Counted from the stretch's first letter, positions 3,273-44,395 are shown. The stretch: 64,000 nucleotides of DNA from Clostridiales bacterium (GCA_015058275.1 SVCQ01000002.1:52902-116901), one strand, 5' to 3'. The notes: a model not told the origin generated them from the letters alone. Program-made: numbers and translations.

Positions 3273-3977
3273 ATGCTAAAGGTATCGGTGCTCGCGGGCA
3301 CTCCCGTGGATACACAGATGGGTGTGGACTTCCTCGAAAGGAAGAACCGTCATGCCCCTGAGGACAGGCAGCTCGAAGTGCTGTACAGACCTGTGGCGGT
3401 CGACTGCGACTCGCAGATCAGGTTCCAGTACTCCGACAATGATGAGAAGCGCCAGGTGATGGACGCCATATTCGACGCGGACATAGAGAACGGAGTGCGC
3501 GACTTCTTCATCTACTGCAACTCTCTGTCGGGCGCCTTCGACTTCGACCGCTATGAGATGCAGAAGTCCATAGACTCCGGAGAGGACATACACATCATCA
3601 CGCCTCTTAAGATCTACAGGAGCCTGGGCAGGGGATACAGGAGGCTCGGCGTCATTGCGGCCAACAATCTCTCGGCACACTCCATAGAGGAGGCTCTTAT
3701 GTCCTCCAACCGGGACCTCTACGTTATAGGCTCCGGCAACATGGCCATAGTCAGGGCGATCGAGGAGGGGTATGAGCCGTCCGCGATAATTGAAAGCTGC
3801 GGCCTGGCGGATATGGACAGGTACATGGAGGCCTGCGGAGCGGAGGCCATACTGCTCGGATGTACGCATTTCCCGTATCTCAAGGATGAATTTGAGAAGG
3901 TCTGCGGTCTGCCTCTCATAGACCCTGCGGACATGATGTACGAGAAGCTCATGGAATCCTTTATTTTGCAGGGATAA
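3273..3977 (+). CDS. Asp/Glu/hydantoin racemase family protein
   Basis: Two catalytic-Cys contexts typical of the family: FIYCNSLS and LLGCTHFPYL. Confidence 0.6.
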   Translation: MLKVSVLAGTPVDTQMGVDFLERKNRHAPEDRQLEVLYRPVAVDCDSQIRFQYSDNDEKRQVMDAIFDADIENGVRDFFIYCNSLSGAFDFDRYEMQKSIDSGEDIHIITPLKIYRSLGRGYRRLGVIAANNLSAHSIEEALMSSNRDLYVIGSGNMAIVRAIEEGYEPSAIIESCGLADMDRYMEACGAEAILLGCTHFPYLKDEFEKVCGLPLIDPADMMYEKLMESFILQG

Positions 3978-4043: not shown

Positions 4044-7000
4044 ATGGACAACAATTTTGTAAAAGTCGGTAAATGGGGCGAGTGTCTCTGGGGCATCAAT
4101 GAGAACGGCGAGCTCTTTATCAACGAAGGCAGGGCAGAGAGCCTGGAGGACGGCTCGCCATGGGCGGAAGTTGCCTCATCGGTGGTCACGGCCAATACGA
4201 TAGGCACCGTCACTTTTCCTGACGGAGCTTCGCTTGCGGGCCTCTTCAAGGGCTGCAAGAACATGGCCAATGCGGATCTGAGCGGCTTCGTCACTGATAA
4301 CGTCAGGGACATGAGCTCGATGTTCGAAGGCTGCGCCAACCTGAAGGGACTCGACATCTCATCCTTTGATACACACCGCTGCTCCAACATGAAAAAGATG
4401 TTCAGCCAGTGCACCAAACTGAGCGAGATACTTCTCGGTCAGGAGTTCAGCACGTCAGGAGACGGCTCGACATCCTGCGACAAGCTCGCCATCAAGGAGT
4501 ACGGCAAGTACAGGAGAGGCAAGCCGATCGCAGTAGAGGGCTTCAAGGTCACCTACCACAGCAATCTCGGTGACGGCAGATCCGACGAGAGGAGAACTTC
4601 TCCGGGTATCAAATACATAATCGAACACCCTATGTTCAATGCCCCGAGCGACAGGGCTTCGTTCGTATCCTGGAATACCGACGCGGATGCCAAGGGCAGA
4701 TTCTATCCGCCGGGGAGATCGATCGAGGATCTCGATGAGGACCTCGAGCTTTATGCTGTCTGGGCATGGGCTCCGGTCATCAAAAAGCAACCGCATATCA
4801 GACCATTTACATTCGGCGAAAAGATCCCGTTCGAACTTCCGGAGATAGAGTCAAAGAATGACCCTGAGGTTACGGGATACCTCGAGATAAGCAAGACAGG
4901 CAAAGAGGGCACATGGCATGCCATCGACCACAACACAGTGCTGCCTGTAGCATTCAACGGATATCTGCTGAGACTCCACGCAGCCAACAGCGTCGGCGAG
5001 ACAGTATCCGATCCGGTCAAGCTCAACATCAAAAAGGCCACGATCGATGTCTCCGGCATACGCTGGGCAGAAGAAGACAACATGGTATATGACGGCACAC
5101 CTAAGGAAGTCCATATCGAGGGTCTGCCTGATTCCATCCAGCCGAAGTACGAAGGCAATGTAGCTACCAACGCAGGTACTTACACAGCCAGCTTTGCATT
5201 TGTCTTTGACCGCAACAACTTCAATGAGCCTATAGTCATCAGGGAGCACGAGTGGACCATCCGCAAGGCTACGCTGGATATGTCCGCAGTCCGCTGGGAT
5301 TATTCGGGTGCATTCACATACGACGGCAGCGTCAGAGAGGTCAAGCTCACAGGCCTGCCTGAGGGCGTTACCGCCATCTACGAAAACAACAGCGCTTCGG
5401 ATGCCGGCATCTACACCGCCACCGTTACGCTCAACTACGATTTCGAGAACTACGAGAAGCCTGCAGACATCGTCCCTTGCGTATGGGAGATCCGCAAGGC
5501 AGTAATCGATGCTTCGTCCATCCGCTGGTCCGGATACAGGGACTTCGTATACGACGGATCGCCTAAGTCGGTCAGGATAGTCAATCTGCCTGAGGATGCG
5601 GCCGTTGAGTATGACGGAGCTGATGAGACTCTGGCAGGCAAGTACCTCGCAAGAGCCAACTTCAAGGGCAATTACACCACCAACGCTCCTGCGGAGTACG
5701 AGTGGGAGATAGCCAAAAAGCACTACGACCTCAGCGGCACTCAGTGGTCGGAGGTCAGAGAGTTCTCATACGACGGACAGCCACACGGCATCGTGCTGAC
5801 CGGACTTCCGGAGCAGCTCGAGGTCAGGTATTCGGGCAACGTCGGCGTATCTGCCGGCAGATACACCGCAAGAGCGGTCTTCGTCAATCCGGATACCCAC
5901 AACTACGTCACGCCTGAGGATGCTACCATCCAGTGGCAGATCACCAAAAAGATCGTCGACATGTCCGGAGTACACTGGGATTACCAGGGACCTTTCACAT
6001 ACGACGGAGAGGCCAAGTCGGTCATGCTCAAGGGACTGCCTGAGGGCATCGGCGCTGACTACGAGAACTTCATGGCATTCGATGCGGGCGAGTACAATGC
6101 ACGCGCCATCCTCAGATACGACGAGGACAACCTCGAGGTCGCATGGCCTTCGGACTGCCAGTGGAGGATCAACAAGAGCAGGATCGATGTATCCGGTGTC
6201 TACTGGGATTACACCGATGCATTCACTTACAACGGCAATAAGCACGCAGTATACCTCGCGGGACTCCCTGAGGGACTGAGCGTAGACTATACGGACAACG
6301 TCAAGACCGAGACAGGCACTTACGTGGCAAGCGCCACACTGACCCCTATCGATGCGGCCAACTTTGAGGTGCCTGAGGTCAACGGCTGCGTATGGACGAT
6401 CAGGAAGGCCGACTGCGAGATCGAGGGTCTTGTATGGACAGACTGCAGCGGCTTCGTATATGACGGACGCGAAAAGACGGTCAGGATCGAGTCAGACCTC
6501 GGCGACATGATCAAGGTCGACTACGAGGACAACGTCGCTGTCAACGCCGGCAGATATTACAGTAAGGCCATCTTCACGCTCTTTGATGACTCCAACCTCA
6601 ACCCGCCTAAGCCGGCAGGTTATTCGTGGAGCATCGCAAAGGCCAGATACGACATGTCACAGGTCGTCTGGGATTACGAGAACGCCTTCACTTATGACGG
6701 AAGCGAGAAGTCCGTCAGGCTCCTCAACGTACCTGAAGGCATCATAGTCAGCTACAGGAACGCTTCGGCCAAGGATGCCGGAGACTACACTGCAGTGGCT
6801 CAGTTCGAGGTCCAGGACGAAAACAACTACGAGACAAGCATCCCTGACATGGTGCTCGACTGGAGCATCCGCAAGGCTGTATTCGACATGTCCGGCGTCA
6901 AGTGGCAGGGCAGCAAAGAGTACGCATACGACGGCGAGATCAAGGGAGAGGACCTCAGACTCGTCGGACTGCCTGACGGCATCACACCTGAGTACATCGA

Positions 7001-11722: not shown

Positions 11723-14482
11723 ATGGGTTTGAAGGAAAAGATCTTCGGAGATCTTAACGCCAAGGAAGTAAGAAAGATAGAAAAGATAGTCGACGTCGTC
11801 GAGTCGTATGACGAGGCGATGCAGGCGCTGTCTGACGATGAGCTCAGAGCCAAGACGGCCGAGTTCAGAGAGAGGCTCGCTGAGGGCGAGACGCTCGACG
11901 ATCTCCTGCCTGAGGCATTCGCGGTATGCCGCGAGGCCGCATGGAGGAGCCTCGGCATGAAGCACTTCAGAGTGCAGCTCATCGGAGGAGTCGTGCTCCA
12001 TCAGGGCAGGATCTCCGAGATGAAGACAGGTGAAGGTAAGACTCTCGTGGCTACCCTGCCTGCCTATCTCAATGCGCTCGAGGGCCGCGGCGTACACGTC
12101 GTGACCGTCAATGACTACCTCGCAAAGCGTGACGCGGAGTGGATGGGCAAGCTCTATACATTCCTCGGCCTCAAGGTCGGCTGCGTCATTCACGCCGTCG
12201 AGGGACCTGCCAGACACGAGCAGTACATGGCGGACATCACGTACGGAACCAACAACGAGTTCGGTTTTGACTATCTGAGAGACAACATGGTCACATACAA
12301 GGAGGAGCTCACACAGAGAGAACTCAACTATGCGATCGTGGACGAGGTCGACTCCATCCTCATCGATGAGGCCAGGACCCCGCTCATCATTTCCGGCAGA
12401 GGCGTTGATTCAAGCGCCATGTACAGGAACGCGAACTCCTTTGTCAAGACACTGACCGAAGGCGCAGACTATAAAGTCGAGGAGAAGGACAATCAGATAT
12501 CCCTCACCGACGAGGGTGTCAGGATCTGCGAGGACTACTTCAAGATCGAGAACTTCTCGGACCCGGACAACATGGAACTCAACCACTACGTCAATCAGGC
12601 TCTGAGAGCCAACTACCTCATGAAGAGAGACGTAGACTACATCGTCAAGGACGGCGAGATCCTCATCGTAGATGAGTTCACCGGACGTCTGATGTACGGC
12701 AGGAGATTCTCCAACGGACTCCACCAGGCCATCGAGGCCAAGGAAGGCGTCAAGGTCAGATCCGAGTCCAAGACTCTCGCTACCATCACACTCCAGAACT
12801 ACTTCAGGATGTACAACAAGCTCGCCGGAATGACCGGTACAGCCAAGACCGAGGAAGACGAGTTCAGAGACATCTACAACATGGACGTTGTGGTCATCCC
12901 GACCAACAAGCCTGTTATAAGAAACGACATGGACGATTCCGTATATGGTCATCAGTCAAGCAAATACAAGGCCATAGTCAACAGAGTGGCCGAGGCTCAC
13001 GAGACGGGACAGCCTGTACTGGTAGGTACCATCTCGATCGAGATATCCGAGCTCATCTCCGGCATGCTCAAAAAGCGCGGCATCAAGCACAACGTGCTGA
13101 ACGCCAAGCACCACGAGCAGGAGGCGGGCATCGTTGCTGAGGCGGGACGCCTCGGAGCGGTCACCATCGCGACCAACATGGCCGGCCGTGGTACGGACAT
13201 CATCCTGGGCGGCAACCCTGAGTTCGAGGCCCGCAGACAGATGGCCAAGGAGGAGTACACTCCTGAGCAGATCTCTTTCGCGACAGGCTTTGAGAAGTCC
13301 GACGATCCTGAGCTTAACGCAGCAAGGGCGAGGTTCCACGAGCTTCACGAGCAGATCAAGGCTGAGAGAGCCCCTGAGCAGGAGAAGGTCAAGGAGCTCG
13401 GAGGTCTTTGCATCATAGGTACAGAGAGACACGAGTCGAGACGTATCGACAACCAGCTCAGAGGACGTTCCGGACGTCAGGGCGACCCTGGTAATACACA
13501 GTTCTTCATCTCGCTTGAGGATGACCTGATGAGACTCTTCGGTGGAGACAGGATGAAGGGCATGCTCGAGAGGATAGGCATCGACGAGGATTCGCCGCTC
13601 GAGGCGGGCATGCTGTCGAGGTCCATCGAGAGCGCACAAAAGAAGGTCGAGGGCAAGAACTTCGGCATACGTAAATACGTACTCCAGTACGACAACGTAA
13701 TGAACAAGCAGCGCGAGATCATCTACGATCAGAGACGCATGGTGCTTGACGGAGAGGACGTATCCGAATACATCCGCAACATGACCTACGAGCTCATCGA
13801 CGGCATCATCGATCCGGTAGTGCTCGAGTCCAAGTTCCCTGAGGAGTGGGAGCTCGAAAGGATCACCGACGCTCTTGAACAGATCACTCCTAAATTCAAG
13901 GGCAGGCTCGAGATCGACGATGAGTACAGAGCCGGCCTCGACGAGCAAAAGCTCAGAGACGATATCAAGAACATCTTCGACAAGCTCTACGAGGAGAAGG
14001 AAGCCGAGATCGGATCCGAGCAGATGAGAGAGGTCGAGCGCATGATCCTCCTCCGCGTTGTGGACAACCGCTGGATGGATCACATCGACGCGATGGATCA
14101 GCTCAAGGACGGTATCGGACTTCGCGGCATCGGCCAGCAGGATCCGGCAGTCGCCTACGCACAGGAAGGCTTTGCGATGTTCGAGGAGATGGTCGCAGAC
14201 ATCCGCGAGGAGACTGTCAAGTTCTGCTACAACGTGACCGTCACGACCAACACTCAGAGACGCAACGTGGTAAGCGGCAGGACTTCTGCTTCCAAGGACG
14301 AGTACAAGGACGATGCTACGGCTCAGCAGGGCGGAGGCTCGATGCCTTCGGCAGCTCCAAAGGCCGACAAGACAGGCAAGCAGGAGACCGTAAGGCGCGA
14401 CATGCCTAAGGTGGGCAGGAACGATCCATGCCCATGCGGCTCCGGCAAGAAGTACAAGAACTGCTGCGGACGCAATGTATAA
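11723..14482 (+). CDS. secA: preprotein translocase ATPase SecA
   Basis: [43 protein letters not shown], and C-terminal zinc finger [14 protein letters not shown]. Confidence 0.97.
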
Positions 14483-14658
14483 CAGACGCCGGATGTCCCC
14501 CGCCTCAACGGAGTAGGCGGCTGGTTCCATATTCGATCGTCAGTGGCGGGTCACAATCCCCGACTGACGATCTCATGAGCTGAAGCTCCCGTCGTCTGTT
14601 GACGGCGTCGCTCGCTCCAACCAAGCGAGCTTGATGGAGCTTCGCTCCTGGTTGAAAG
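14477..14658 (+). repeat. ~182-nt structured repeat, copy A (candidate ncRNA or non-autonomous element)
   Basis: Starts GTATAACAGACGCCGG, overlapping the secA stop (TAA 14480-14482). Contains a 10-bp hairpin GATCGTCAGT/ACTGACGATC, a hairpin GCTCGCT/AGCGAGC, and long-range ACAGACG/CGTCTGT and GAAGCTCC/GGAGCTTC complementarity. Nearly identical to copy B. Confidence 0.85.
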
Positions 14659-14674
14659 CATATGATATTCTGAA

Positions 14675-14696
14675 AGCGCCTCTCCGGGGGCGTTTT
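14675..14696 (+). terminator. weak terminator-like hairpin after repeat copy A
   Basis: Short stem CGCC (14677-14680) / GGCG (14689-14692) with flanking A-T and G-T pairs, then TTTT (14693-14696). Confidence 0.35.
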
Positions 14697-14727
14697 CCTG
14701 TGCCCTCCCTAAAGGCGGGATAATTGT

Positions 14728-14756
14728 TTGACCGCCCATTGGTCATGGGATAGAAT
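14728..14756 (+). promoter_or_regulatory. sigma-A type promoter between the two repeat copies
   Basis: TTGACC (14728-14733), 17-nt spacer, TAGAAT (14751-14756). It would place repeat copy B in the 5' leader of the LemA-like/DUF2207 genes. Confidence 0.55.
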
Positions 14757-14795
14757 ATGTGTGTATGGAATGAATGATCCCGCTTGGGGTCAGAA

Positions 14796-14977
14796 GTATA
14801 ACAGACGCCGGATGTCCCCCGCCTCAACGGAGTAGGCGGCGGGTTCCATATTCGATCGTCAGTGGCGGGTCACAATCCCCGACTGACGATCTCATGAGCT
14901 GAAGCTCCCGTCGTCTGTTGACGGTGTCGCTCGCTCCAACCAAGCGAGCTTGATGGAGCTTCGCTCCTGGTTGAAAG
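14796..14977 (+). repeat. ~182-nt structured repeat, copy B
   Basis: Differs from copy A at only two positions by eye, with an offset of 319 nt. It ends 12 nt before the LemA-like start codon. Confidence 0.85.
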
Positions 14978-14989
14978 AAAGGACAAGCC

Positions 14990-15268
14990 ATGGCAGTAGT
15001 TATCATTATTCTGGCAGCGATAGCGGCGTTCATCGCTTTTTCGTACAATTCGCTTACGAAGGACAAAAACCGCATCGAACTTGCCCAGGTAGAGCTCAGG
15101 AAGTACGAAGAGGCCGGTGATCCAAAGGACATCGATAACGCGAGGAAGTACTATGCTGCAGTGCTCAGAGACTACAACACCAAGGTCGAGAGGTTCCCGA
15201 CCAGTCTCATAGCTGAGCTCTTCAATTTCCCGAAGATGCACACAGACGACTTTGACGAGGGACTATAG
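14990..15268 (+). CDS. short LemA-like membrane protein (92 aa)
   Basis: N-terminal TM plus YNSL motif, and a C-terminal ARKYY..DYNTKVERFPTSLIAELFNF motif typical of LemA. The central ~90 residues of ordinary LemA are absent. It is followed by a DUF2207 gene, the usual LemA partner. Confidence 0.6.
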   Translation: MAVVIIILAAIAAFIAFSYNSLTKDKNRIELAQVELRKYEEAGDPKDIDNARKYYAAVLRDYNTKVERFPTSLIAELFNFPKMHTDDFDEGL

Positions 15269-15374
15269 ACCTGTCATCTGAATGAGATCCTAAATGCTTT
15301 CTTCATTCATAACGGCGTTGCCGTAATGATGAAAGCATTGATCTTCGGAGGCTGAGCTCCTTCGATAACTGCTA

Positions 15375-15496
15375 CGCTCAGGATGACCTGTCATTCTGAG
15401 GAGCGCAGCGACGAAGAATCCCGAAGCGCAGCGACGAAGAATCTCGAAGCGCAGCGACGAGGAATCCCGAAGCGCAGCGACGAAGAATCCCGAAGG
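15375..15496. repeat. palindromic repeat family copy with a 4x 23-nt tandem expansion
   Basis: CGCTCAGGATGACC-TGTCATTCTGAGGAGCGCAGCGACGAAGAATCCC, then GAAGCGCAGCGACGA(A/G)GAATC(C/T)C repeated (units about 15401-15422, 15423-15445, 15446-15468, 15469-15491). The array runs directly into the GAAGGAGG ribosome-binding site of the next gene. Confidence 0.85.
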
Positions 15497-15506
15497 AGGA
15501 GTCAAT

Positions 15507-17432
15507 ATGAATCGCAACAATAACAAACACGGCCCACTCTCGCGCATAGCGGCTGTACTCGGCATCCTTGCAGTCGTGTTCTTCATGGCGCCGCGTGTGT
15601 CCGGGCCGGCTATAGCTGACGACAACACGATGTACACGCCGGTGTATAACGTCACGGTCGATGTATCCGAGGACAACTCGTACGACTACCACGAGCACCT
15701 CGGCATGTACTATGTGACGCCTCACCATGGTATCTACAGGTATCTGCCAAAGCAGGGCCAGAAGATCAGCGGCATCAAAGTGCCGGGCTACGACTTCGAG
15801 ACATATACCGACAGCGGCTACGAAGTGGTCAAGATCGGCAGCGGCAGCTACACCCTCACGGGTGACAACGAGTACGATATCTACTACAGGATCGCCATGT
15901 ATGAGGACGAGAATTCCGACATGGACATGCTGCTTCTCAACCTCATCCCGACCGACTGGGAGACGGGCATAGAGAAGGCTGAGATGACGGTCAATCTGCC
16001 TAAGGAAGCTGACCTCAGCAAGGTGCAGGTCTACTCCGGCAGCTACGGGACCGAAGGCAATGAGGACAACGCCGAGCTCAAAACGGGCGAGGACGGCAAG
16101 ACCATCAAAATCACGGCGAGCGATCTGCCGGCACACCACGGAGTGACCATGACGCTCGAGCTTCCTCAGGGCTACTGGGTAGGCGCTCCTGAATTCGGCA
16201 AGCTCAGCATCCCTGTCATGATGCTCTTCCTGCTCGGACCTATCGGAGCGGCAGTGCTCTGGTATCTCTTCGGCAGAGACAAGCACATGGTCAAGACCCT
16301 CGAATTCTATCCTCCGGATGATCTGACTCCGGGCGAGATCGGATACCTCGTGGACGGCAGGGCCGACAAGCAGGACGTCATATCCTCCATCGTATATCTC
16401 GCGGACAAGGGGTATATCGAGATCGAGGAGGTCGACCGCAAGAGATTCAAGTTCATCGCGCTGGATTCCCCGGGAGATGAAGTACCGGCATACATAAGGT
16501 CCATATTCAAGGGCATATTCCCTGACAACAAGACCGAGAGATACAGCGATTCCCTCGGCGTCACATTCGGCAGGAAGTACCAGCAGTCCATCGAGCAGCT
16601 CCAGAGGATGTTCTCCGGCAAGAAGGCTATCACAAGGCCGGATTCGATCATGGCCAGATGGGCATGCGCCATCGCTGCGGTGGTGCCGTCTGTAGCCTTC
16701 ATCACATGGGCCAGCCTCAACGGGGTGGACGACGGAATGGGTGTCGTGTGGTGCGGCCTGCATGTACTGGCTTCCGTATGGCTGATGTGCTCGGTATACG
16801 ACAATATCCGCAGCACATCCAAGGTAAAGACAGTGCTCAAGAGCCTCGGAGCGATATGGTTCTATTCCATGGGCGTTGCGATCGTCCCGCTCATGTATTC
16901 GGATTCGCTCTCGCTGCTCGACAGGCCTAAGGCGGTTGCGATCGTGCTCTACCTCATGGTGGGCACTCTCGTGAGCATGTTCTTTGCGGTCATCTCGATC
17001 GCCAGGACAGACAGCTACACGGATATGCTCGGCAGGGTACTCGGCTTCAGAGACTTCATCAAGACGGCTGAGCTCGACAAGCTCAACGAGCTGGTGGAGC
17101 AGGACCCTGAGTACTTCTACCACATCATGCCTTACGCATATGTATTCGGCCTGAGCAATAAATGGATCAAGAACTTTGAGAACATACCTGTCGTCACTCC
17201 GAACTGGTACCGCGGTACCAGGAGGATGGACGCCTTCGACTACTACATGATGGGCCGCATGATGGGTGACTGCAGCGCAAGCGTAGGCAACCACATCGTC
17301 CTGCCGTCTTCAGGAGGCGGCGGAGGCTTCTCCGGAGGCGGCGGAGGCGGAAGCTGGAGCGGCGGTGGCGGCTTCAGCGGAGGCGGCTTCTCAGGCGGCG
17401 GTGCCGGAGGCGGCGGAGGCGGCGGCTGGTAG
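15507..17432 (+). CDS. DUF2207 domain membrane protein
   Basis: Signal/TM, an extracellular DUF2207-type N-domain (YxVxVDVSEDNSYDY.E....HGIYRYLP), multiple TMs and a Gly-rich tail GGGGFSGGGGGGSWSGGGG. Paired with LemA. Confidence 0.82.
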   Translation: MNRNNNKHGPLSRIAAVLGILAVVFFMAPRVSGPAIADDNTMYTPVYNVTVDVSEDNSYDYHEHLGMYYVTPHHGIYRYLPKQGQKISGIKVPGYDFETYTDSGYEVVKIGSGSYTLTGDNEYDIYYRIAMYEDENSDMDMLLLNLIPTDWETGIEKAEMTVNLPKEADLSKVQVYSGSYGTEGNEDNAELKTGEDGKTIKITASDLPAHHGVTMTLELPQGYWVGAPEFGKLSIPVMMLFLLGPIGAAVLWYLFGRDKHMVKTLEFYPPDDLTPGEIGYLVDGRADKQDVISSIVYLADKGYIEIEEVDRKRFKFIALDSPGDEVPAYIRSIFKGIFPDNKTERYSDSLGVTFGRKYQQSIEQLQRMFSGKKAITRPDSIMARWACAIAAVVPSVAFITWASLNGVDDGMGVVWCGLHVLASVWLMCSVYDNIRSTSKVKTVLKSLGAIWFYSMGVAIVPLMYSDSLSLLDRPKAVAIVLYLMVGTLVSMFFAVISIARTDSYTDMLGRVLGFRDFIKTAELDKLNELVEQDPEYFYHIMPYAYVFGLSNKWIKNFENIPVVTPNWYRGTRRMDAFDYYMMGRMMGDCSASVGNHIVLPSSGGGGGFSGGGGGGSWSGGGGFSGGGFSGGGAGGGGGGGW

Positions 17433-42382: not shown

Positions 42383-43456
42383 ATGGCTAAAAACAAAGAA
42401 GAACTGCGCGATCTCAACGTCTCCGAGACCGGTCACACATACGAGAACAGACAGGAGATCTACTACAACGACAACGTAGGCGGCAGAGCCGTATTCGTTG
42501 ACTCCAAGGAGCAGTACAGCCCGGACGAGCCGTACAATGAGGACGTCTACATCCCTGAGAAGGACAGAGACAAGGCTCCTATACTCGAGGTCAAGAACCT
42601 CGGTATCGACTTCGGCGGTCTGACTGCCGTAGACAACTTCAACCTGACTCTGGGACGCACCGAGATCGGCGGACTCATCGGTCCTAACGGTGCCGGCAAG
42701 ACCACAATCTTTAACATGCTCACCAAGGTGTACGAGCCTACAAGAGGAGAGATATTCTTTGACGGCAGATCCACCAAGGGCATGAAGACCGTGGACATCA
42801 ACAAGGCCGGCATGGCGCGTACATTCCAGAACATCAGGCTCTTTGACAAGCTGACCGTAGAGGAGAACATCAAAGTAGCTCTCCACCACACCACGGACTA
42901 CAGCCTGGTTGACGGCATGTTCCATACGCCTAAGTACAGGCACGAGGAATACCGCATCCGCAAGGAGGCGATGAAGTACCTCAAGATCTTCGGCATGACC
43001 AAGACGGCCAACTACACGGCCGGATCGCTCCCTTACGGAGCTCAGAGAAGGCTCGAGATCATGAGAGCGCTGGCTACAAAGCCAAAACTCCTGCTGCTGG
43101 ACGAGCCGGCGGCGGGCATGAACCCATCCGAGACATCGGAACTCATGGAGACGATCAGAGAGATCCGCGACAGATTCCAGATCGCGATATTCCTGATCGA
43201 GCACGACATGAACCTCGTCATGAACATCTGCGAGGGCATCGTGGTACTCAACTACGGCCGTGTCATCGCAAAGGGGCAGCCTGAGGACATCCAGAAGAAC
43301 CCTAAGGTAATCGAGGCTTACCTCGGCAAGAGCAGAGGCAAGATGGAAGAGGAAGAGAAGAACGAAGACATCGAAGAGGCTCTCAAAAAGGGCAAGCTCG
43401 AATCATCCGCTTCCGGAAAGCCGGATACAGGATCATCCGGGAAGGAGGTAGAGTAA
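42383..43456 (+). CDS. livG: branched-chain amino acid ABC transporter ATP-binding protein with N- and C-terminal extensions
   Basis: Walker A GPNGAGKTT, LPYGAQRRLEI, LLLDEPAAGMN. There is a ~65-aa acidic/Tyr-rich N-extension and a ~45-aa Glu/Lys-rich tail. Confidence 0.88.
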   Translation: MAKNKEELRDLNVSETGHTYENRQEIYYNDNVGGRAVFVDSKEQYSPDEPYNEDVYIPEKDRDKAPILEVKNLGIDFGGLTAVDNFNLTLGRTEIGGLIGPNGAGKTTIFNMLTKVYEPTRGEIFFDGRSTKGMKTVDINKAGMARTFQNIRLFDKLTVEENIKVALHHTTDYSLVDGMFHTPKYRHEEYRIRKEAMKYLKIFGMTKTANYTAGSLPYGAQRRLEIMRALATKPKLLLLDEPAAGMNPSETSELMETIREIRDRFQIAIFLIEHDMNLVMNICEGIVVLNYGRVIAKGQPEDIQKNPKVIEAYLGKSRGKMEEEEKNEDIEEALKKGKLESSASGKPDTGSSGKEVE

Positions 43457-44166
43457 TGGGCACAGTACTGACAGTTAAGAACATTAACGTCTATTACGGA
43501 GCCATTCATGCCATCAAAGGCATCTCCTTCGACGTAAACAGAGGCGAGATAGTCACGCTTATCGGAGCCAACGGAGCCGGCAAGTCGACTACGCTTCACA
43601 CCATCTCCGGACTTCTCAGGAGCAAGACAGGCGACATCGAATTCCTCGAGGAGTCGATCGCTCATACGCCTGCTCACAAGATCGTATCCAAGGGCATCTC
43701 CCACGTACCTGAAGGCCGCAGGATATTCCAGGGCATGACGGTACAGGAGAACCTCCAGATGGGTGCTTTCGTAACCAAGCAGGACAGGATCGCTCACAAC
43801 CTCGAGTACGTGTACGATCAGTTCCCGAGGCTCAAGGAGAGGACAAGCCAGATCGCAGGCACTCTCTCCGGAGGCGAGCAGCAGATGCTGGCCATGGGCA
43901 GGGCTCTTATGTCCGACCCTGAGCTGCTGATGCTCGACGAGCCTTCGATGGGACTCGCGCCTATCCTGGTAGACCAGATCTTCGAGATCATCAAAAACCT
44001 CAACAAGGCGGGCACTACCATACTGCTGGTAGAGCAGAACGCCCAGATGGCTCTTTCGGTAGCCGACAGAGCGTACGTAATAGAGACGGGCAAGATCTCG
44101 CTCTCCGGCACAGGAGAGGAGCTCGCAAAGTCCGACGAAGTACGCAAGGCATACCTCGGAGGCTAA
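43456..44166 (+). CDS. livF: branched-chain amino acid ABC transporter ATP-binding protein
   Basis: Walker A GANGAGKST, LSGGEQQMLAMGRAL, LMLDEPSMGLAP. The start overlaps the livG stop (TAATG). Confidence 0.92.
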   Translation: MGTVLTVKNINVYYGAIHAIKGISFDVNRGEIVTLIGANGAGKSTTLHTISGLLRSKTGDIEFLEESIAHTPAHKIVSKGISHVPEGRRIFQGMTVQENLQMGAFVTKQDRIAHNLEYVYDQFPRLKERTSQIAGTLSGGEQQMLAMGRALMSDPELLMLDEPSMGLAPILVDQIFEIIKNLNKAGTTILLVEQNAQMALSVADRAYVIETGKISLSGTGEELAKSDEVRKAYLGG

Positions 44167-44172
44167 CACTCA

Positions 44173-44357
44173 TTTCAACTAGGAGCGAAGCTCCAACAAG
44201 CTCGCTTGATTGGAGCGAGCGACGCCGTCAACAGACGCCGAGAGCTTCAGCTCCTGAGGGCGTCGGTCGGGGATTGTACCCACCACCGACGGTCGAAGAT
44301 GGAACCCGCCGCCTTTATTGTCATTTAGAGGCGGGGGACATCCGGCGTCTGTTATAC
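44173..44357 (-). repeat. ~182-nt structured repeat, copy C (inverted, diverged)
   Basis: The reverse complement aligns end-to-end with copies A and B (TGTATAACAGACGCCGGATGTCCCCCGCCTC ... GGAGCTTCGCTCCTAGTTGAAA). The first hairpin loop is replaced, and one stem shows paired substitutions. Confidence 0.82.
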
Positions 44358-44361
44358 AAGG

Positions 44362-44395
44362 CCGGCCGGAGGGACTTCCCTCCGGCCGGTTTTTG
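44362..44395 (+). terminator. strong intrinsic terminator of the liv-like operon
   Basis: 12-bp stem CCGGCCGGAGGG (44362-44373) / CCCTCCGGCCGG (44378-44389), 4-nt loop, then TTTTT. Confidence 0.85.

Follow-up and report, generated by a model that had tools for sequence, protein, structure and literature searches.

Repeats at the secA–LemA locus of a Clostridiales bacterium belong to a mobile, protein-less family, probably of the IS200/IS605 type

Three copies of a structured repeat in the window

We analysed a 64,000-nt stretch of DNA from a Clostridiales bacterium (GCA_015058275.1, SVCQ01000002.1:52902-116901; the whole stretch is referred to as the window), whose source genome lies outside the one-genome-per-species set that was scanned for relatives. 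In this window, the spacer between secA, an assignment backed by Pfam SecA domains, and a downstream open reading frame (ORF) of the LemA family (Pfam PF04011) contains two copies of a structured repeat, copy A (14477-14658) and copy B (14796-14977). Each copy spans 182 nt, the two are 99% identical, and their starts lie 319 nt apart based on a repeat search; a column-by-column comparison found 2 mismatches and a sharp drop in identity beyond the 182-nt limits. An earlier reading made from the sequence alone (the sequence-only reading) had given the coordinates, the two differences and the spacing exactly. The spacer is 507 nt in the window, but only about 40 nt in relatives (39-94 nt, element-free).

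The secA stop codon (TAA, 14480-14482) falls within the repeated span, in keeping with the earlier claim that copy A begins within the last codons of secA, and copy A sits between this stop codon and a terminator-like hairpin, which was read by eye and was not flagged by a simple terminator scan. The promoter-like site that the sequence-only reading placed upstream of copy B is indeed there, matching at 10 of 12 positions, and a ribosome-binding site (RBS), AAAGGA, lies directly 3′ of copy B. The distance from copy B to the LemA-family ATG (14990) is 12 nt from the 182-nt span, as that reading had stated, and 14 nt from the mobile unit as delimited below. A third copy, C (44173-44357, minus strand), is 87.6% identical based on blastn; it is antisense to its plus-strand flanking genes and lies between the stop codon of a gene for an ABC-transporter ATPase (43456-44166) and a terminator hairpin (44360-44394). 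The coordinates of these features are collected in Table 1.

Genes were called on the basis of codon usage, with a caller that replaced longest-ORF calls and was validated on the Pfam-confirmed genes of the window. Long antisense ORFs are present opposite secA (524 aa, 12956-14530, minus strand) and opposite the ABC ATPase gene (283 aa, 43318-44169, minus strand); these ORFs mislead length-based gene calling in this 54% GC genome and put the neighbours of copy C on the wrong strand.

Table 1. Positions of the repeat copies, their parts and nearby features in the window
Feature	Position	Strand	Remarks
ATAA target motif of copy A, resembling a target-adjacent motif	14479..14482	+	TAA part is the secA stop codon
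Copy A, mobile unit CAGACGCC…GGTTGAA	14483..14656	+	174 nt; repeat, nhmmer E=6e-64
Hairpin 1 of copy A, CCCCCGCCT/AGGCGGCTGG	14497..14524	+	one bulged C, variable loop; folding
Hairpin 2 of copy A, 10-bp GATCGTCAGT/ACTGACGATC plus apical GGG/CCC	14535..14572	+	inverted repeat
3′ domain of copy A	14582..14656	+	GAAGCTCC/GGAGCTTC long-range helix plus GCTCGCT/AGCGAGC hairpin
Terminator-like hairpin, CGCCTC-TCCG-GGGGCG plus TTTT	14677..14699	+	3′ of copy A; host sequence; read by eye
Promoter-like site, TTGACC-17-TAGAAT	14728..14756	+	between copies A and B; host sequence; 10/12 match
Copy B, mobile unit	14802..14975	+	174 nt; preceded by ATAA at 14798-14801
Stand-alone 77-nt module, AAATGC…CGATAA	15292..15368	+	blastn against nested module; inverted repeat
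Copy C, mobile unit	44174..44351	-	178 nt; different subfamily; ATAA at 44352-44355, minus strand

A dispersed family of non-coding repeats

The repeat is not confined to this locus. A scan with the invariant 5′ 20-mer against one genome per species yielded 82 stretches in 16 rumen or gut metagenome-assembled genomes (MAGs), assigned to Anaerovoracaceae, Mogibacterium and ‘uncultured Clostridiales’, and RUG11913 and JAZQBC each have 23 or more sites; an extra match in Microvirga is due to chance. A metagenome scan with an independent 3′-end pattern added 25 more stretches, a third subfamily included, and the 5′ terminus is conserved in this set even though the search did not select for it. The number of copies in related genomes, which the sequence-only reading had suggested counting, exceeds 100, and the family is dispersed: its flanks are unique, with 84 distinct 5′ junctions, and copies adjoin unrelated genes in 3′UTR-like, 5′UTR-like and intercistronic positions (UTR, untranslated region). 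The ‘tandem pair’ formed by copies A and B is thus two among many dispersed copies. Copies are typically located in short operon spacers, frequently with 13-17 nt between their 3′ end and the following start codon. Many are found at contig ends, which is expected because repeats break assemblies.

The unit measures 174-178 nt in the window and 130-250 nt in variants. Internal deletions that keep both termini are common, as are copies truncated at the 5′ or the 3′ end, and the loop of hairpin 1 varies between subfamilies in both length and sequence. At least 13 JAZQBC copies carry a 77-nt module nested in this loop, and the module occupies another loop in L054, L066 and L112.

We found no ORF inside any of the more than 100 copies and no recurrent neighbouring ORF, since clustering gave only cross-species orthologues. 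Copies with only a 5′ or only a 3′ end were inspected for an autonomous version of the element, and all run into host genes. The suggestion of a known RNA class (raiA, HEARO or Clostridiales-1) did not hold: searches against Rfam 15 gave 0 matches across the whole window at gathering thresholds, and only chance-level matches (E>=0.95) in 14300-15200 at E up to 10, with the raiA, HEARO, Clostridiales-1 and IS605-orfB motifs included. Distant blastn against plasmid and phage collections found no match to the element, viral contigs gave 0 matches with either end pattern, and ARAGORN detected no tRNA or tmRNA in 14300-15600, so that a tRNA-derived element resembling a short interspersed element was rejected. 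A full-text literature search with the element's sequence string found no paper, and a keyword search for similar repeats gave nothing specific. The family is not in Rfam; its kind (miniature HUH-type or structured interspersed repeat) is already well known.

Insertion boundaries and the target site

Copies of the family share well-defined ends. ATAA precedes CAGACG in 83 of the 84 unique 5′ junctions; 68% of copies have a T immediately before ATAA, and the sequence further upstream is random. Nearly all copies end in GTTGAA, with random sequence downstream (50 unique 3′ junctions). No target-site duplication was detected in these 50 junctions or at the empty sites in L097 and L093, and there are no terminal inverted repeats when the 5′ end, CAGACGCCGG, is compared with the reverse complement of the 3′ end, TTCAACCAGG (the 3′ end itself reads …CTCCTGGTTGAA). 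These junction and end comparisons, together with the ORF analysis, bear out the earlier statement that the repeat has no terminal inverted repeats, no coding capacity and no adjacent transposase, and is not a classical miniature inverted-repeat transposable element (MITE).

The family flank logos fit two boundary models: either ATAA is part of the element, or ATAA is already present in the target and a unit CAGACG…GTTGAA is inserted 3′ of it. The boundaries of copy A were set from these logos and from the position of the native secA stop; two nucleotides on either edge of the 182-nt span are flanking sequence that copies A and B have in common by chance. The SecA proteins of 30 relatives end in CCG followed by RNQ, RNA, RNV, KNA or KL, and are of the same length as the window protein (CCGRNV*). 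The closest element-free relative, L128, reads AAT GTG TAA|TAGATAG compared with AAT GTA TAA|CAGACG in the window. Since the same SecA end and stop codon are kept in element-free relatives, the stop codon of secA in the window is native, and copy A follows it directly. Likewise, the empty allele at the copy C site (window 44166-44360) in L093 (∼3711-3745; flanks 82% identical) corresponds to the occupied allele minus CAGACG…GTTGAA, in length and at 15 of 17 bases, and it keeps ATAA (TATATAAG). Diverged empty orthologues with a TAA stop at the junction were found for two pairs (L049 versus L077, L052 versus L032); the empty sites in L034 and L052 have diverged too far for boundaries to be placed to the base. 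In further relatives (three protein clusters, 28 contigs, 95-97% protein identity), the spacer at the copy C site is not homologous.

The two models also differ in how often the ATAA should supply a stop codon. In 333 element-free co-directional spacers, there are 63 stop-codon ATAA sites and 277 other sense ATAA sites, so that 19% of copies (63/340) would be expected to abut a stop if ATAA is a pre-existing target, compared with 1-2% if it belongs to the element. The observed share is about 18% (about 6/33 independent); in ∼10 copies, at ∼6 independent sites, the stop codon of the upstream ORF is the TAA of ATAA. One empty allele behaves differently. In L097 (∼803-830), whose flanks are 99.3% identical to those of the window, the copy C site is shorter by exactly 182 nt and, in the orientation of the element, has the sequence CCTTGT^ATGAGTG, without ATAA. 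Taking these comparisons together, we consider it likely that ATAA is a pre-existing target rather than part of the element, in which case the L097 allele would be an imprecise or alternative excision product; one possibility is a joint made by cleavage after a CTTGT just upstream that resembles a transposon-encoded motif.

Mobility, gene conversion and orientation

The family is polymorphic between strains. Copy C occurs in the window as well as in L094 and L100 but is absent from L097 and L093, so that 99%-identical strains differ in its presence; such polymorphism, and the short, element-free secA–LemA spacers of relatives, are at odds with the assumption that the repeat is a fixed feature of its locus. 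In L095, the copy at the same site (3717-3898) is a chimera, in which the first ∼122 nt are of the A/B type (>20 diagnostic positions) and the final ∼35 nt match copy C exactly (four diagnostic positions), which points to exchange between copies by ectopic gene conversion. Identity of copies A and B to copies in RUG11913 is 97-98%, whereas genes of the window have only 68-78% DNA identity to those of RUG11913 and JAZQBC; this contrast in identity would imply either recent horizontal spread or strong constraint.

Orientation was counted only where the genes on both sides of a copy are co-directional. Among complete copies, 28 are in the sense orientation and 1, copy C of the window, is antisense; with truncated copies included, the counts are 45 and 6. 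The sense orientation thus accounts for 88% of copies, compared with 63% expected from target availability, indicating an additional strand bias beyond that of the targets.

Predicted structure of the element

The helices named in the sequence-only reading are all present in the predicted fold: ACAGACG/CGTCTGT, CCGCC/GGCGG, the 10-bp helix of hairpin 2, and the long-range helix of the 3′ domain enclosing GCTCGCT/AGCGAGC. The minimum free energy is −81.1 kcal/mol, compared with −59.3±4.2 in 200 dinucleotide shuffles (z=−5.25), and the complementary strand folds about equally well (z=−4.55). The span conserved across the family, ATAA plus CAGACG…GTTGAA, is ordered as ATAA and CAGACGCCGGATGT, hairpin 1, hairpin 2 and a 3′ domain ending in GGAGC-TTC-GCTCC-TGGTTGAA, and the element's terminal 3′ sequence is …GGAGCTTCGCTCCTGGTTGAA. 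Hairpin 1, with a right arm AGGCGG-C-GGG, is the subterminal hairpin of the left end, 14 nt from the insertion junction, and 98.6% of its cells are paired. The terminal hairpin, GGAGC-TTC-GCTCC (5 bp), lies 8 nt from the GTTGAA end. The 3′ domain also has two duplicated, CGGCGTC-like boxes, each complementary to the 5′ GACGCCG; the latter could pair with either box, or the boxes might form a local hairpin. The 5′ and 3′ subterminal hairpins, which TnpA would bind in an element of the IS200/IS605 type, differ in sequence.

Conservation of the structure was examined in 44 distinct full-length copies. Standard pairs occupy 96% of pair cells, but only about 32-45% when the structure is slid by 1-3 columns. 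Compensatory changes are few, affecting about 4 pairs. The pair 75:100 in hairpin 2 is A-U in 16 copies and G-C in 27, a difference due to one subfamily event; L003 has CATC/GATG in place of CGTC/GACG, also in hairpin 2; one pair of hairpin 1 has a double change; and a double change in L116 (A6G and T135C) supports the long-range helix between the 5′ ACAGACG and CGTCTGT. Among single-sided stem defects, 13 pairs have G·U and 18 have A·C, a balance from which we conclude that wobble-compatible changes are not favoured on the written strand. The decay of individual copies is that of neutral DNA, without strand-specific RNA-level selection, and the structure belongs to the propagating master sequences and not to each resident copy. 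Of the earlier proposal of a structured RNA class, the structured and non-coding nature of the repeat stands, but the few compensatory pairs and the balanced defects give an RNA class little support. A simple scan found no promoter-like or terminator-like site inside copy A or B.

Relationship to IS200/IS605 transposases and TnpB elements

Insertion sequences (ISs) of the IS200/IS605 family have their left end placed 3′ of a tetra- or pentanucleotide that is specific to the element and already present in the target. Their excision is precise and yields single-stranded circles, and they insert into the template of the lagging strand (PMC5027513); their cleavage sites are recognised through sequences beside the subterminal hairpins (PMC5934647). 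Protein-less derivatives, the palindrome-associated transposable elements (PATEs), are known and often encode omega-RNAs (PMC10055086; PATEs are also described in PMC3119063). The spacing of the hairpins in our element (14 nt at the 5′ end, 8 nt at the 3′ end) and its second left-end hairpin are similar to the geometry described for IS608 and ISDra2 (PMC5934647). The guide/target pairing rule of IS608 was considered and set aside, as the contacts are non-canonical base triplets and the rule is not transferable. The mention of an ‘omega-RNA-like’ motif in the sequence-only reading came nearest to a link with the IS200/IS605 family and its PATEs; no Rfam match of the omega-RNA type was obtained.

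A motif scan of the 845 kb of collected DNA identified one IS200-type transposase, in L010 of MAG JAZQBC (Pfam Y1_Tnp, E=5e-41), and searches with this TnpA (tblastn) and with its IS (blastn) found a single copy in the collected DNA. The gene (L010 ∼5083-5535, minus strand) has no in-frame ATG upstream of its conserved SKWLCHYHVVF motif and is flanked by the hairpins CCACCGG…CCGGTG and CCACCAG…CTGGTGG. A zinc-ribbon scan identified a 5′-truncated TnpB gene (L018 4107-5293) in the same MAG, in which the element has 23 or more copies, and Mogibacterium-type contigs are rich in full-length TnpB relatives (367 aa, with identities of up to 92%). The L018 TnpB gene abuts an ORF that, by eye, resembles a RelB/DinJ-type antitoxin; further upstream, L018 3715-3880 consists of about three tandem repeats, each ∼57 nt long.

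The right end of these TnpB elements, as defined by comparison of L018 with L135, is …GTGTAAGACG[variable hairpin]CGCAG…CCC(C/A)CACCTC-loop-TAGGTGG(C/T)GGGAGCGTTCAATC|, and the family has TCAAT at its left flank. The right end of L018 has in common with the 5′ module of our element the 11-mer AGACGCCGGAT and a hairpin, CCCCC(A/G)CCTC…TAGG(T/C)GGCGGG, within a series of collinear blocks (GT(A/G)TAA, GACGCCGGAT, CCCCC·CCTC, TAGG·GGCGGG and TTC(C/A)AT). This alignment scores 36, compared with 17.9±3.8 in shuffles, and 0 of 500 shuffles reach it. Alignment of the whole element to the TnpB right end is no better than with shuffles. Truncated copies in L052, L077 and L002 end at TTC(C/G)AT, the equivalent of the cleavage point of the TnpB family, and those in L015 and L022 end just after hairpin 2; these end points hint at alternative 3′ ends. 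By sequence, the element is related to the observed TnpB elements, but is no simple deletion derivative of them.

An IS110-family IS (DEDD_Tnp_IS110/Transposase_20) occurs in L132 (∼1530-2651), L133, L134 and L143 (∼1290-2410). Its insertion point, CAAGCCTGTGGAG|TCTGCAAATAG, is constant and lies in the omega-RNA/right-end region of TnpB elements; its presence in four contigs and at least two contexts suggests site-specific targeting of that sequence.

Interpretation and alternatives

We interpret copies A, B and C, with somewhat better than even confidence, as insertions of a PATE-like, non-autonomous mobile element of the IS200/IS605 type that is moved by a Y1 transposase acting in trans. The copies belong to a young, mobile, protein-less repeat family with an ATAA rule, no duplication, no inverted repeats, a strand bias, neutral decay and gene conversion. 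From the resemblance to IS200/IS605 elements we infer the single-strand ‘peel-and-paste’ route and the identity of the enzyme. On such a route, one DNA strand would fold into subterminal hairpins, a Y1 (HUH) transposase encoded elsewhere in the genome would excise the folded strand, and this strand would be joined, without duplication, immediately 3′ of an ATAA in a single-stranded target at the replication fork. ATAA is abundant in spacers and often holds a TAA stop, so that the surviving copies would lie between a stop codon and the next RBS or terminator, mostly oriented like the neighbouring genes and passively co-transcribed; that the target often contains TAA is also why copies hug stop codons. 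Once inserted, copies undergo point mutation, deletion and gene conversion, and can gain the second small repeat in their loops. In the window, the 3′UTR of secA gains a large hairpin structure from copy A, and the 5′UTR of the LemA gene gains one from copy B.

Several observations weigh against this interpretation. No transposase gene flanked by the ends of the element was found among the more than 100 copies and the collected fragments, and the flanks of the L010 Y1 transposase are unrelated to the element. The TnpB family has a different flank motif (TCAAT) and a different left end, and its more distant member L135 has only the hairpin in common with the element (z=0.5). The hairpins at the 5′ and 3′ ends of the element are unlike each other, in contrast to those of IS608. 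The absence of ATAA from L097 fits ATAA travelling with the element, unless that allele arose imprecisely. Finally, with regard to the strand bias, the flanking-gene strand and the locus-majority strand never disagree, so that the directions of transcription and replication are inseparable in the fragments studied, and copy C is inverted relative to copies A and B within one replichore, the GC skew being positive across the whole window.

An alternative that we regard as unlikely is that the element carries ATAA as its own first four bases (ATAACAG…GTTGAA) and inserts at weakly specified T^A-like sites by IS91-type rolling circle, by another HUH mechanism or by another duplication-free route. 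The L097 allele, 182 nt shorter and without ATAA between flanks of 99.3% identity, is what an empty site of such an element would look like, and the T before ATAA in 68% of copies would fit a T^A-like site. Rolling-circle elements carry a short hairpin near the 3′ end, and there is one here 8 nt from that end. However, the insertion at secA would then have to fall exactly after base 2 of the last codon, while keeping the length and the terminal valine of the protein; the 1-2% of stop-supplying copies that it predicts is far from the ∼18% seen, which matches the 19% stop share of ATAA sites; and ATAA is retained in the empty site of L093. A classical MITE moved by a DDE transposase, to which we give hardly any credence, would likewise be small, non-coding, multicopy and intergenic, but the ends are not inverted repeats, the 50 unique 3′ junctions and the empty site reveal no duplication, and the orientation bias is strong.

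The structure of the repeat raises the question of an RNA function. That it is a functional structured RNA spread by transposition, either a cis-acting mRNA module (stabiliser, processing site or translational insulator) of operon spacers or a PATE-borne, omega-RNA-like guide for TnpB or IscB with the 3′ flank as guide, seems to us improbable. The very stable fold (z=−5.25), the retention of 96% of pair cells (about 42% in slid controls) and the subfamily-level compensatory changes (75:100, L003 and A6G/T135C in L116) are consistent with such a function, as are the strong sense orientation, by which nearly all copies would be transcribed with host genes, the frequent presence of omega-RNAs in PATEs (PMC10055086) and the resemblance of the 5′ module to the terminal hairpin of the co-resident TnpB right end, which is the site of the omega-RNA. 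Against it, there is no Rfam match, HEARO and IS605-orfB included, even with the E threshold relaxed to 10; stem defects of the G·U and the A·C kind are in balance (13 versus 18 pairs); truncation is common at both ends; the complementary strand folds equally well; and neither copy A nor copy B has a promoter-like or terminator-like site in the simple scan. Moreover, the hairpin shared with the TnpB elements is at the 5′ end of the element, away from the 3′ flank where the guide of an omega-RNA would start, and no tnpB adjoins any copy. The idea from which the analysis started, that of a leader or riboswitch-like RNA specific to the secA/LemA region and duplicated in tandem, drew on the position of copy B between a promoter-like site and the LemA-family start codon, and the alternative pairings of the 5′ GACGCCG with the two CGGCGTC-like boxes would suit a switch. 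This idea is already refuted by the distribution of the family and by element-free orthologous loci, and we leave it only the slightest chance: more than 100 copies lie beside unrelated genes, copy C is antisense and missing in some strains, and close relatives keep the secA-LemA-DUF2207 order with a spacer of 39-94 nt and no element. Integron attC sites were dismissed, since the copies are dispersed among housekeeping genes and not in arrays, and group I/II intron fragments, retron RNA and repeats of diversity-generating retroelements are ruled out by size, ends and the lack of an Rfam match.

A bolder extension of the IS200/IS605 interpretation, and one we hold to be a long shot, is that the family represents a distinct lineage of single-stranded DNA transposons that uses TAA stops as a ‘safe harbour’, and whose folded copies, almost always transcribed in sense, would supply RNAs in trans (as guide or decoy for the co-resident TnpB nucleases, whose elements have the terminal hairpin in common with it) or act in operon spacers as portable modules of mRNA processing or stability.

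Comparison with known repeats

The closest likeness is to the PATEs of Haloquadratum (PMC3119063) and Geobacillus stearothermophilus (PMC10055086), which are also short, non-coding and multicopy, without inverted terminal repeats or duplications. In both, the 5′ end adjoins a fixed tetranucleotide and the 3′ end is made up of a related motif (here ATAA and TTGAA), and both have subterminal hairpins, a strand-biased orientation, a need for mobilisation in trans and host genomes with IS200-type TnpA and TnpB. Unlike the PATEs, the element has no cognate full-length IS with the same ends among those found, and its 5′ and 3′ hairpins are unlike; it is larger, with 4-5 helices and long-range pairings in place of a minimal left and right end; one of its empty alleles lacks ATAA; and many copies abut stop codons. 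With the TnpB IS605/IS1341 elements of Mogibacterium and Anaerovoracaceae (L018, L135; P0121-P0156), the element shares the 11-mer, in L018, and the terminal hairpin, with compensatory changes; in both, TTC(A/C)AT follows the hairpin, and three truncated copies of the element end there. The TnpB elements differ in their TCAAT flank, in their end, GTTCAATC, in their left end and the rest of the omega-RNA region, which are dissimilar, and in having the shared module at their right end, whereas it is at the left end of the element.

REP/BIME repeats and their RAYT transposases provide another comparison (PMC8266576, PMC3479197). They are likewise high-copy, structured extragenic repeats without inverted terminal repeats or duplications, and their movement is attributed to a HUH Y1 enzyme that is encoded in single copy and works on single strands in folded form (PMC8266576, PMC3479197). 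REPs, however, are palindromes of 20-40 nt with a conserved 5′ tetranucleotide, and usually occur as inverted doublets flanking a RAYT gene, while the element is ∼175 nt, mostly solitary and not seen flanking any gene; a motif scan restricted to Y1-type genes found no such (RAYT-like) gene between inverted pairs of the element.

The sense bias of 9:1 and the ATAA/stop-codon junction are specific to the element when it is set against BOX and RUP of Streptococcus pneumoniae, ERIC, the Correia elements of Neisseria and bcr1 of the Bacillus cereus group. These repeats are 100-200 nt long and present in tens to hundreds of copies, and, like the element, they lie in transcribed intergenic regions, have stable folds and exist in modular deletion and insertion variants. 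Correia, RUP and ERIC have inverted ends and/or TA duplications, and bcr1 is flanked by TTTAT. None of the five is known to have sequence similarity to the element.

Recognition of the family removes the false lead of a new secA-linked riboregulator and puts a well-delimited repeat family in its place. The family breaks assemblies of rumen Anaerovoracaceae and Mogibacterium genomes, inflates intergenic regions and introduces large hairpins into untranslated regions of housekeeping operons. It is a clear natural case of an ATAA target rule in a protein-less element, and, if the trans-acting enzyme is found, would offer a compact system in anaerobic Firmicutes for the interplay of single-strand transposition and transcription.

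A second small repeat and variable sequence near the LemA gene

The 77-nt module that is nested in copies of the element also occurs on its own, downstream of the LemA-family ORF in the window (Table 1) and at L010 2300-2375 and L041 1752-1807; nested examples are found at L023 1228-1304 and L054 6308-6383, and in L066 and L112. Its fold consists of a long outer hairpin, an apical mini-hairpin ACGGC-GTT-GCCGT and a GGAGG/CCTCC hairpin. An alignment of stand-alone and nested modules reveals compensatory changes (CTTTC/GAAAG, CTATC/GATAG and CTTCC/GGAAG; ACGGC/GCCGT and GCAGC/GCTGC), and covariation is stronger in this module than in the main element. In the window, direct repeats of 13-14 nt (15269-15281, ACCTGTCATCTGA; 15386-15399, ACCTGTCATTCTGA) bracket the module and ∼27 nt extra, and could be a duplication from the insertion of a larger unit.

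The LemA-family ORF itself (14990-15268) encodes 92 aa, compared with 92-93 aa in relatives, and covers only positions 73-133 of the 149-position Pfam model. Both the short form and the secA-LemA-DUF2207 order are kept in L128, L130 and L131; because they are conserved in relatives, the ORF has not been truncated by the repeats. An apparently longer spacer in L148 was a gene-call artefact. Directly upstream of the RBS of the DUF2207 gene, positions 15402-15493 consist of four tandem 23-nt units (AGCGCAGCGACGAAGAATCCCGA). The strain contigs L089 and L090 have a single unit, and a spacer of 169 nt compared with 238 nt; this difference in unit number, four versus one, identifies a variable-number repeat in the 5′ leader of the DUF2207 gene.

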